Source of the DNA: Longimicrobiales bacterium
Lineage (GTDB): Bacteria; Gemmatimonadota; Gemmatimonadetes; Longimicrobiales; RSA9
Direction of reading: 5' to 3'
Length of the DNA: 64,000 nt
NCBI GenBank assembly: GCA_035461105.1
Contig: DATHVV010000129.1
Location: 18,140 to 82,139 of the forward strand
Shown here: positions 22,082 through 23,684 of the stretch, one piece after another
Position numbering within the stretch: position 1 is the stretch's first letter
How the letters are laid out: each line of letters starts with the position of its first letter
Notes under the pieces: generated by a model
What the model saw: the letters and a program-made list of their open reading frames with translations, nothing else
Database searches by the model: none
What the model was told of the DNA's origin: nothing
Translations under genes and position numbers: made by a program

Positions 22082-22188
22082 GGACGCGCGGCCGCGCCTT
22101 CTCCACCGGCACACTTGGCCGGGCGACGGGTCGGCACCTCCGAGCGTGCCGCCGGATGCCGGTCGCCCGCCGATCCGGCCGTCCCGGA

Positions 22189-22662
22189 TCAGCTCCCCGG
22201 AAGGTGCTCGTCGATCTCGGCGGTCCAGCTGATCGCGACCGCGGCGGCGAGGCTGCGCGCCGTGGGGCACTTTTCCTGGTGCCGCGAGAGGGCTCTTTCC
22301 ACGGCCGGGCGCGCCTCCGCCGGCACGCGCAGCTGGTAGCGCACGTGGATTCGCGTGAGCCGGACGATTCCGTCCACCAGCTCGTTGGTGCCTTCGACCC
22401 GTGCGGAGATGTCGGCCGGGGGTAGATCGATCCCGCGCGCTGCCAGCGCGCCATTGAGGGTTCCCAGCATTCAGCCGCCGGTCGCGGCCACGATGTAGTC
22501 CACTGGCAGCGGCAGATCGCGCTCGGCGTCGAGCCGGAAATGGCTCTTGATGGGGCCGTGCACGCCGACGTCGATGACGCCCCCGGCGTCGAGGTGCAGG
22601 CGCCGGTGCACGCCCGCCACCTTCTCGATGCGGGCCCCGGCCACGTAGAGCGGCTCACTCAT
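22189..22662 (-). CDS. OsmC/Ohr-family peroxiredoxin-like protein with an in-frame TGA at the conserved Cys position (candidate selenocysteine; alternatively a pseudogene)
   Basis: ORFs 22471..23130 (used from the internal ATG at 22662, MSEPLYVAGARIEK...) and 22189..22470 share one frame and are separated only by TGA at 22471-22473: ...PVDYIVAATGG-TGA-MLGTLNGALAARGI...HQEKCPTARSL... The joined product is a 157-codon full-length OsmC fold. Confidence 0.6.
22432..22460 (-). promoter_or_regulatory. SECIS-like hairpin downstream of the in-frame UGA
   Basis: The mRNA forms GCGCGC-UGGCA-GCGCGC (22451..22435) starting 19 nt after the UGA. An optional lower CCC/GGG stem extends it. There is a G in the apical loop. 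Confidence 0.3.
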
Positions 22663-22883
22663 GCGTCCTCCTGTCCGGCGCCCGCAGGATTCTCGGGCGG
22701 TTTGACTGGGGTGTCCCCGGGCCGGTAGCCGAAGCAGGCCAGCACGGGCAGGCGCGGGTAGCGCGGGAAGCGCGCGTCGAAACGGGAACGCTCGCAGAGC
22801 CAGAAACGCGACCCGCGCGCGTTCTCGACCACGCGGTGAAAAGCGCAGTCGGAGCAGAGGCCGGGCTCGGGACCGGCAGGCAT
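22659..22883 (-). CDS. small conserved cysteine-rich protein (CxxC...C...C), function unknown
   Basis: 74 aa. MPAGPEPGLCSDCAFHRVVENARGSRFWLCERSRFDARFPRYPRLPVLACFGY... Strong GC3 bias. Its stop overlaps the OsmC-like start (ATGA). Confidence 0.7.
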   Translation of the reverse strand: MPAGPEPGLCSDCAFHRVVENARGSRFWLCERSRFDARFPRYPRLPVLACFGYRPGDTPVKPPENPAGAGQEDA

Positions 22884-22892
22884 GGGCCAGAC

Positions 22893-23684
22893 TCACGCGG
22901 CGCGTACGCCGAGCACGCCGAGCTGCCGCTCCCGGCACCCGGCGCGATGCGACCAGAACGCCCCTTCCGCACAGCGCGTGCAGTGCGCCGAGAGCGTAAT
23001 GCGCGCCGCCGGGATGCCGGCCCGGAGCCCGCGCTCCGCGATGACGGCGCGCAGATCCAGCTGCATCCGGTCGGTTGGCCCGCGGTCGAGGCCGAGCGCA
23101 GTCGGCACTTCCGCGCCGACCTGGTAACACGCGCCGCAGATCGCCGGGCCGCAGTGGAGCTCAAGGTCGCGCGCTGTCGACCCGGCCCCCCCGTCGAGCG
23201 CCGCGATCCCCGCCTCCAGGATACCGGTAGCGACCCCGCGCCAGCCGCCGTGCAGGAGCGCGATCGCGCGTCGCACCGGGTCGACCAGCGAGATCGGGAC
23301 GCAGTCGGCCACGGAGACCGTGAGCAGCACCCCGGCCTGGCGGGTGGCGTGGCCATCTGAATCGTCGGCGACCAGCAGGCCGGCCGGCAGGTCGGCATGC
23401 CACAGGACGCGCGCGCCGTGCACCTGACGGGCGTGCAGCGCGGTGGGCAGCCCGGTCGCTTCCCGCAGCGCGCGCCAGCGCCCGAGCGCGGTCGCGACCG
23501 CGACCTCACCGAACAGTCCCATGTCGAGGCCGTCCCCGGCGCGACCGGTCGTACCCTGCACCAGCCAGGGATGACGGCGCGTCCATTCGGGATGCGTCCA
23601 GAGCGGGAAGGTCCCGGTCGCCTCCTCGCGGACGCGCCGCACCCCGCCCGGCGGAGTCGGCCGCGGGGCCGGCGCAGCGCTCAC
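22893..23684 (-). CDS. pgeF: YfiH/PgeF-family (DUF152, laccase-domain) peptidoglycan editing factor
   Basis: 263 aa. ...QVHGARV...SDGHATRQAGVLLTVSVADCVPI...ALLHGGWRG...HCGPAICGACYQVG... Confidence 0.88.
   Translation of the reverse strand: MSAAPAPRPTPPGGVRRVREEATGTFPLWTHPEWTRRHPWLVQGTTGRAGDGLDMGLFGEVAVATALGRWRALREATGLPTALHARQVHGARVLWHADLPAGLLVADDSDGHATRQAGVLLTVSVADCVPISLVDPVRRAIALLHGGWRGVATGILEAGIAALDGGAGSTARDLELHCGPAICGACYQVGAEVPTALGLDRGPTDRMQLDLRAVIAERGLRAGIPAARITLSAHCTRCAEGAFWSHRAGCRERQLGVLGVRAA

Follow-up and report, generated by a model that had tools for sequence, protein, structure and literature searches.

An OsmC-family gene with an internal TGA

This report concerns a gene on the minus strand of a 64,000-nucleotide stretch of DNA from a bacterium of the order Longimicrobiales, phylum Gemmatimonadota (assembly GCA_035461105.1, contig DATHVV010000129.1, positions 18,140 to 82,139). 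The whole stretch is called the window below, and coordinates given without a contig or locus name refer to it. Two minus-strand open reading frames (ORFs), 22471..23130 and 22189..22470, constitute a single frame, and the sole divider between them is a TGA triplet (22473..22471) that is followed immediately by ATG. If this TGA is read through, a complete coding sequence (CDS) of 157 sense codons runs on the minus strand from the ATG at 22662 to a terminal TGA stop at 22191..22189 (22189..22662 in all), and the internal UGA (22471..22473) becomes codon 64, a predicted selenocysteine (Sec). The extent of this CDS is supported by a domain match that crosses the TGA, by a conserved N-terminus, and by equal purifying selection on both halves. 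The ATG at 22662 is the true start, in that homologs have the same N-terminus, MSEP.Y, and a Shine-Dalgarno-like AGGAGG, recognizable in the sequence and presumably functional, is located 4 nucleotides (nt) upstream of it (22667..22672, minus strand). Around codon 64, the joined product reads ...DYIVAATGG-U-MLGTLNGALAAR. The original prediction, which was made from the letters of this DNA alone, had proposed the two same-frame ORFs, the TGA followed by ATG, and the 157-codon read-through product, and both the coordinates and the peptide proved correct.

The joined product is a member of the OsmC family, as the prediction had also claimed in saying that the two halves together form a full domain. 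With Cys placed at codon 64, it scores 50.4 bits against the Pfam OsmC profile (PF02566; cut-off 27.5 bits), and the match extends over residues 51-146 and over profile positions 6-99 of 100, with the TGA inside the matched span. When the halves are searched separately, the C-terminal half scores 32.4 bits and the N-terminal half gives no score. A search against solved structures brought up OsmC of Thermus (1UKK, E = 3e-6) and of E. coli (1QWI/1NYE); in the alignments with the joined protein, the TGA column coincides with the Cys of AAHAGC in 1UKK and with the Cys of AAHAAC in 1QWI, which is Cys59 of the E. coli protein. The second conserved Cys, the resolving one, is Cys132 of the window protein (TGC at 22267..22269, minus strand). 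Cys132 is invariant in homologs, and its motif, EKCPTA, is matched in the structures by EGCPVS and by AGCPVS, the latter with Cys125 of E. coli OsmC. The two correspondences given in the original prediction, with Cys59 and with Cys125, are thus borne out by the structure alignment, and both redox-active positions of the OsmC/Ohr two-Cys peroxidases, peroxidatic and resolving, are present. Judging from family membership, the product would have hydroperoxide reductase activity.

In the same window, TGA is the commonest ordinary stop codon and ends 30 of the 44 putative genes, including the gene described here. Because of this, a reassigned genetic code is ruled out and any decoding of codon 64 as an amino acid must be a local recoding event, as had been argued from a few other genes of the window. 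A scan of all the in-frame TGAs with coding-like flanks found no other credible case in the window; the other candidates that it raised are explained by an antisense frame and by an ordinary boundary between genes.

Conservation of the UGA, the frame, and the downstream hairpin

Relatives of the gene were collected in several ways. A protein search returned 812 relatives, of which approximately 20-23 are full length (152-161 amino acids (aa)) and most of the others are fragments of approximately 90 aa; these fragments begin exactly at the residue after the TGA column. Among 16 full-length database homologs that were aligned, 12 have Cys at the TGA column, one of them (P0034) being a deletion variant. 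At the DNA level, two scans of collections with one genome per species found relatives in 267 species, from which 91 loci were retrieved, and a scan of metagenomes, in which Cys forms served as the lead query, provided another 80 loci. The codon at the column is TGA in 90 of the 91 species-level genomic loci and in 78 of the 80 metagenomic loci (168/171 together), and among the fetched loci the stop at this position is never TAA or TAG. In rare orthologs (L092, L093, L094, L299, and L371), the column is occupied by TGC or TGT. Two Cys orthologs, L094 and P0006, are syntenic, being located upstream of rimP-nusA-infB. The sole non-TGA locus among the 91 genomic ones (L015 3001-3411, encoding P0034) has Cys, and approximately 15 residues are missing before its catalytic column (…ETPD-CWGTLNG…).

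The frame is maintained on both sides of the TGA. The N-terminal half is found upstream and in frame in 173 of 174 loci. At the first, second, and third codon positions, pairwise differences average 0.28, 0.21, and 0.50 before the TGA and 0.27, 0.24, and 0.52 after it, the third position being highest on both sides. The corresponding ratios of non-synonymous to synonymous differences (pN/pS) are 0.45 and 0.48. Beyond the TGA, the relatives show neither frameshifts nor decay. Because codon-position variability and pN/pS are alike on either side, both halves are translated in this frame under the same constraint. An alignment with orthologs had been proposed as a check on the prediction; it returned TGA or Cys at the column, with conservation continuing downstream.

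These observations decide a question that a single sequence cannot. A TGA is one base away from TGC or TGT, so that the window by itself could present a nonsense mutation in a dying gene or an error of base calling or assembly, the two alternatives that the original prediction had named. However, assemblies made independently from different species and samples have the same TGA at 168 loci, and a pseudogene would hardly have kept its frame in both halves, with pN/pS at approximately 0.45-0.48 on either side and no decay downstream. We therefore consider a pseudogene or sequence error to be excluded, with almost no probability left to it.

A second possibility is that the TGA is a true stop and that the halves are made as separate polypeptides that assemble into an OsmC-like fold, the second half starting by termination-reinitiation at the ATG right after the TGA. 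The window does have such an ATG, as do 116 of 141 unique TGA genes, and gene callers treat the C-terminal half as a protein in its own right, of approximately 90 aa. Nevertheless, the Met after the column is ancestral, since full-length Cys homologs read C-M-L-G-T-L, and in the remaining 25 of the 141 genes the codon after the TGA is CTG, CTA, or CTC, which rules out a start of its own for the downstream half. A protein split at this point would be without the family-defining catalytic residue, and a split gene leaves unexplained why the stop is always TGA, never TAA or TAG, and why the mRNA carries the selected hairpin described below. This arrangement is very unlikely. On the sequence comparisons, in other words, a pseudogene, a sequencing error, and a split gene are each excluded or very unlikely.

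It should be mentioned that three further database proteins have something other than Cys at the Sec column. In P0017 (L379 283-768), the database protein has Trp where the DNA has TGA, so that the gene caller evidently used a code in which TGA is Trp; P0016 has the same Trp and is likewise counted as an artefact that passes for a full-length non-Sec homolog. In P0005, from a short metagenomic contig (L380 366-833), there is a true GGA (Gly) at the column, one base away from TGA, and the downstream hairpin of this gene is fully intact (GCGUGC-UGGAG-GCACGC). The GGA represents either a catalytic residue that was lost very recently or a mistake in the reads or the assembly.

The third conserved element is a hairpin in the mRNA just 3' of the UGA, the predicted core of a bacterial selenocysteine insertion sequence (SECIS), at 22435..22451 on the minus strand. 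It reads GCGCGC-UGGCA-GCGCGC, with the 5' arm at 22451..22446, the loop at 22445..22441, and the 3' arm at 22440..22435. The stem begins 19 nt after the UGA and has 6 base pairs (bp), is GC-rich, and has G in its loop; the U and A of the loop can form a seventh pair, leaving a GGC triloop. The position, sequence, and loop G of this hairpin were as originally predicted. According to a recent review (PMC13188914), the consensus of the bacterial SECIS (bSECIS) comprises a loop of 3-9 nt, a stem of 4-16 bp, a loop sequence of N1-G-[G|U]-N-N2, a spacing of 16-37 nt, and a minimum free energy of no more than -7.5 kcal/mol. The hairpin of the window (6 bp, or 7 with the U·A pair; loop UGGCA; 25 nt from the UGA; -12.8 kcal/mol) fits this consensus in each respect.

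The structure is also conserved. RNAalifold recovers the stem from 32 diverse sequences; when the structure is imposed on this set, 98.4% of cells are paired, compared with 5-68% in slid registers, and two pairs vary on both sides. All 6 pairs are kept in 138 of the 141 unique TGA genes but in 2 of 5 Cys genes (Fisher p = 4e-4), the control being small (n = 5) and the Cys forms rare even when they lead the query. In the syntenic Cys ortholog L094, the stem is lost and 2 of its 6 pairs are left. The loop has the form UGGNN in 135 of the 141 TGA genes. Four of the hairpin pairs show covariation in these 141 genes. In the numbering of the alignment columns, pair 27-35 is A-U in 100 genes, G-C in 31, G-U in 8, and C·U in 2, with A·C in none; pair 26-36 is C-G in 134, U-A in 4, and G-U in 2, with one mismatch; and pair 23-39 is G-C in 119, G-U in 19, and C-G in 2, again with one mismatch. 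The switch between A-U and G-C couples a synonymous change on one arm (Ala GCA/GCG) to an amino acid replacement on the other (Val GUG/Ala GCG).

The codons that carry the stem are constrained beyond the protein that they encode. In the stem codons (+7 to +12 from the Sec codon), synonymous heterozygosity is 0.20, compared with 0.47 for the remaining codons of the gene (Mann-Whitney p = 0.001). Ala at +8 is encoded by GCA in 64 of 85 genes, compared with approximately 6% of the Ala codons elsewhere in those genes; Val at +11 is GTG in 67 of 68 genes, compared with a predominance of GTC elsewhere; and at Gly +7, GGG and GGA are never used. Conservation of the hairpin among orthologs, which had been named as a check, thus holds in all three respects: in 138 of the 141 genes, in covariation, and in synonymous constraint. 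The comparative pattern argues that the hairpin is a selected RNA element, a bacterial SECIS that would be bound by SelB. Conservation of the UGA, the frame, and the hairpin extends across well over a hundred Gemmatimonadota genomes. Carriers of the TGA gene include complete chromosomes (OZ242201.1, OY970192.1, OZ220691.1, NZ_OZ253465.1, NZ_OZ250143.1, OZ242312.1, and CP070670.1).

Probable decoding of the UGA as selenocysteine

If the UGA is read, the question is by which tRNA. The components of Sec synthesis and insertion were sought in the lineage. For selD, a GC-biased DNA probe was directed at the universal SelD motif TDVTGFGLLGH. The probe, validated on PDB entries 3U0O and 2YYE, caught selD in one Longimicrobiales contig and one Gemmatimonadaceae contig, and a follow-up profile scan of genomes found at least three further Gemmatimonadota selD loci. 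In all four of the complete Gemmatimonadota selD genes (L215 4001-5059, L216 3428-4447, L225 4001-5047, and L234 4001-5044), there is a TGA at the catalytic position, HGAG-U-A[CS]KLG, and for this reason SelD is itself a selenoprotein in these organisms. SelD entries of Gemmatimonadales and Longimicrobiales were also numerous in a SelD profile search, and fragments of 325 aa made up a large part of them; this is consistent with a TGA near the N-terminus.

A tRNA-Sec gene with the anticodon TCA adjoins selD in a Gemmatimonadaceae metagenome-assembled genome (MAG) (L141 6993..7087, minus strand, JBHELH010000119.1). It was found by ARAGORN and scores 77.9 bits against the Rfam model RF01852, of which the threshold is 47. 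A selD gene and the TGA-containing osmC gene also occur in the same assembly: GCA_036259495.1 holds both SelD P0159, a Cys form (DATABQ010000587.1), and the OsmC locus L021 (DATABQ010000555.1), a co-occurrence established through the assembly accession. With regard to the remaining two factors, Table S4 of a published study (PMC5649159) covers two Gemmatimonadetes bins, bin43 and bin94, and assigns to each a single SelA (COG1921) and a single SelB (COG3276).

The UGA of selD is likewise followed by GC-rich hairpins. The first stem is located approximately 10 nt downstream, at the same position and with different sequences in L215 and L234; a second hairpin, GCGCAG-GUU-CUGCGC, is located approximately 27 nt downstream of the UGA in three of the four genes. 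Either stem is a candidate SECIS.

Could the UGA be read by another tRNA? A near-cognate tRNA-Trp or tRNA-Cys might decode it, and the hairpin would then be a generic stimulator of read-through. This possibility draws on the facts that the case for Sec rests on comparative data and that SelA and SelB are taken from published tables. It sits poorly, however, with (i) the location of the UGA at a redox-active Cys column, the classic site of Sec/Cys exchange; (ii) the fit of the hairpin to the SelB-type bSECIS consensus in its spacing and G-G loop; (iii) the presence in the lineage of tRNA-Sec and of selD, with SelD itself having a UGA at its catalytic Cys/Sec site; and (iv) the SelA and SelB reported in the Gemmatimonadetes bins. 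Decoding by such a tRNA is therefore highly improbable, and the UGA at codon 64 of 22662..22189 very probably encodes selenocysteine in an OsmC-family protein, as judged from the comparison of sequences. The candidate selenoprotein of the original prediction is in this sense supported, by the TGA in 168 of 171 loci, by the hairpin in 138 of 141 genes, and by the machinery in the lineage.

Several points weigh against this conclusion and should be set beside it. Neither in the 64-kb window nor in the DNA flanking the OsmC loci was tRNA-Sec, selA, selB, or selD found: ARAGORN detected no tRNA in the window, and a tblastn search of the window and every OsmC flank with SelA, SelB, and SelD of E. 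coli gave only a cross-match to the GTPase IF-2 (initiation factor 2). The Sec machinery is accordingly demonstrated at the level of the lineage and not at that of the window's organism, and SelA and SelB are known in the lineage from the published COG tables for two Gemmatimonadetes bins only. A search for Sec machinery had been suggested as a check; the lineage returned selD, tRNA-Sec, and a Sec-containing SelD, and the window and the OsmC flanks returned none of the genes.

The remaining points concern the hairpin. Considered alone, that of the window has a z-score of -1.75, and 11 of 200 shuffled sequences fold as well, at a GC content of 70%; single-sequence folding energy was consequently dropped as evidence, and because it is unremarkable at 70% GC, the SECIS assignment is convincing through the comparative data only. 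The peptide G-A-L-E-V-R in a high-GC genome partly predisposes the mRNA to such a hairpin, as is seen from the two of five Cys genes that form the stem, and the statistics of covariation at the four pairs are inflated by shared ancestry. Finally, no Rfam SECIS family matched at E <= 10 in 22100..22800, where there were only chance matches, and a search of the whole window at the gathering thresholds also gave chance matches only; mascRNA and mir-8521 were the chance matches across both Rfam searches. The hairpin fits the published bSECIS consensus, and the Rfam covariance models do not recognize it. Bacterial SECIS elements are heterogeneous (PMC13188914), and because of this the missing Rfam match, which is common among such elements, carries little weight.

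Taken together, the recoding is strongly supported by the comparative data, and the chemistry may be proposed from family membership. The model that the data favor most is ordinary bacterial Sec insertion, with the gene encoding a single 157-residue thiol peroxidase of the OsmC family in which UGA codon 64 is decoded as selenocysteine. As the ribosome nears the UGA, the mRNA 19-35 nt downstream would fold into the GC-rich hairpin of 6-7 bp with its G-G-containing apical loop, a SECIS embedded in the codons for G-A-L-A/E-A/V-R. The complex SelB·GTP·Sec-tRNASec would bind this hairpin (22451..22435) and, competing with release factor 2, place Sec in the ribosomal A site, after which translation would run on as far as the terminal TGA at 22191..22189. 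Sec64 would take the place of the peroxidatic Cys in the protein and, by analogy with OsmC/Ohr, attack (organic) hydroperoxides; it would then form a selenenylsulfide with the resolving Cys132, and a dithiol reductant would presumably recycle it.

Relation to known OsmC proteins, gene neighborhood, and annotation

OsmC-like selenoproteins are known. They were reported in the Sargasso Sea survey of Zhang, Fomenko and Gladyshev in 2005 as COG1765 proteins with a UxxT motif, represented by three Sec and ten Cys sequences (PMC1088965), and a 2026 review lists them (PF02566) in an account of selenoproteomes in which Gemmatimonadota are not mentioned (PMC13188914). The statement in the original prediction that OsmC-like Sec proteins had been listed in metagenomic selenoproteome surveys was therefore correct. 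The clade described here is a new clade of this known kind of selenoprotein. It belongs to the OsmC superfamily, would work as the known OsmC selenoproteins do, and falls outside the curated selenoprotein family. It shares with the known family (COG1765/PF02566, NCBIfam NF041052) the OsmC fold, a predicted UGA-encoded Sec where the first redox-active Cys would otherwise be, a hairpin of the bacterial SECIS type directly downstream, with G in its apical loop, and the existence of Cys homologs. It differs from it in several respects. Against NF041052, the OsmC-related (seleno)protein model, the window protein scores 31.2 bits, below the cut-off of 95 bits, which places it in a different subfamily. 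The motif of the clade is U-M/L-L-G-T (U-x-x-x-T, with Thr at +4) and not the UxxT of 2005. The clade comes from soil, sediment, and sponges, whereas the family of 2005 came from ocean surface plankton. Instead of the three Sec and ten Cys sequences of the survey, it has 168 Sec loci to 3 Cys loci among those fetched by similarity.

With the OsmC proteins of E. coli and T. thermophilus (1QWI/1NYE and 1UKK) and with Ohr, the window protein has in common the fold family and the two active positions, U64 corresponding to Cys59 and Cys132 to Cys125, and a peroxidase cycle of the two-cysteine type would be expected by analogy. Unlike these proteins, it has the predicted Sec for the peroxidatic Cys and an N-terminal extension bearing conserved HRR and GVHGP motifs that are not seen in them. 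The similarity is low: E = 3e-6 to 1UKK, and approximately 23 bits (23.3, compared with a cut-off of 85.8) against TIGR03562, the NCBIfam model for the OsmC family peroxiredoxins. As for the RNA element, the hairpin resembles the SECIS of E. coli fdhF and fdnG in being located within the CDS just 3' of the UGA, in its small G-bearing loop, and in its 16-37 nt spacing. It has no sequence similarity to them, and its short stem (6-7 bp) lacks an evident bulged U.

The clade ranges over the Gemmatimonadota (Longimicrobiales, Gemmatimonadales, and Ca. Palauibacter), together with a few MAGs labelled as Acidobacteriota or Eisenbacteria. We propose tentatively, with slightly more doubt than confidence, that it may be a separate and uncatalogued OsmC subfamily outside the NCBI model, in which Sec is nearly fixed across the phylum and which has its own SECIS in the G-A-L-E-V-R codons. 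If this is true, Sec would have been recruited a second time, independently, in the OsmC superfamily, and the protein would be a convenient marker selenoprotein for a mostly aerobic phylum of soil, sediment, and sponges (the Gemmatimonadota, plus some Acidobacteriota-labelled MAGs).

Directly upstream of the selenoprotein gene is a Cys-rich ORF of 74 codons (22659..22883, minus strand), whose TGA stop overlaps the ATG of the selenoprotein gene (ATGA). Its product has a CSDC...C motif and has no match in Pfam or NCBIfam. In 39 related loci, among them that of the Cys ortholog L094, a homolog of this ORF precedes the gene on the same strand. The ORF is probably co-transcribed and translationally coupled with the selenoprotein gene, and its product may be a co-translated partner of the selenoprotein, with which it would form a shared functional unit. 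In a wider context, the gene order pgeF, small Cys-rich ORF, osmC, rimP-nusA-infB is found in approximately 30 of 145 loci, Cys orthologs among them; the rimP-nusA-infB neighborhood was rejected as a family-wide feature on account of this number. A Cys-containing sister group (CMLGTLIGALEVRQV), represented by L092 and L093 (3001-3462 in both), is located in a different neighborhood, where the gene is placed divergently beside ctaA/ctaB (COX15, UbiA) and cytochrome c oxidase genes. This placement hints that the paralog is linked to haem or to respiratory oxidative stress.

In the public databases, the genes of this clade are routinely split or truncated. Entries P0024-P0120 are among hundreds of public entries of 88-105 aa that represent C-terminal halves from which the N-terminal 63 codons and the Sec have been lost, and these fragments bear names such as "OsmC family protein", "organic hydroperoxide reductase OsmC/OhrA", and "hypothetical protein". 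Because the curated NCBI model for OsmC selenoproteins misses the clade, automated pipelines will go on truncating it.

The present finding is useful for annotation; it is not conceptually surprising and changes no concept. Through the comparative data, it confirms UGA-to-Sec recoding for the lineage of the window's organism and adds a well-supported selenoprotein clade to the Gemmatimonadota. The 141 unique sequences with both UGA and hairpin, with their natural compensatory variants, are a comparative set for the specificity of SelB-SECIS recognition in this phylum. The great excess of Sec over Cys at the peroxidatic site, in bacteria that are largely aerobic, bears on the question of why peroxidases retain selenocysteine.

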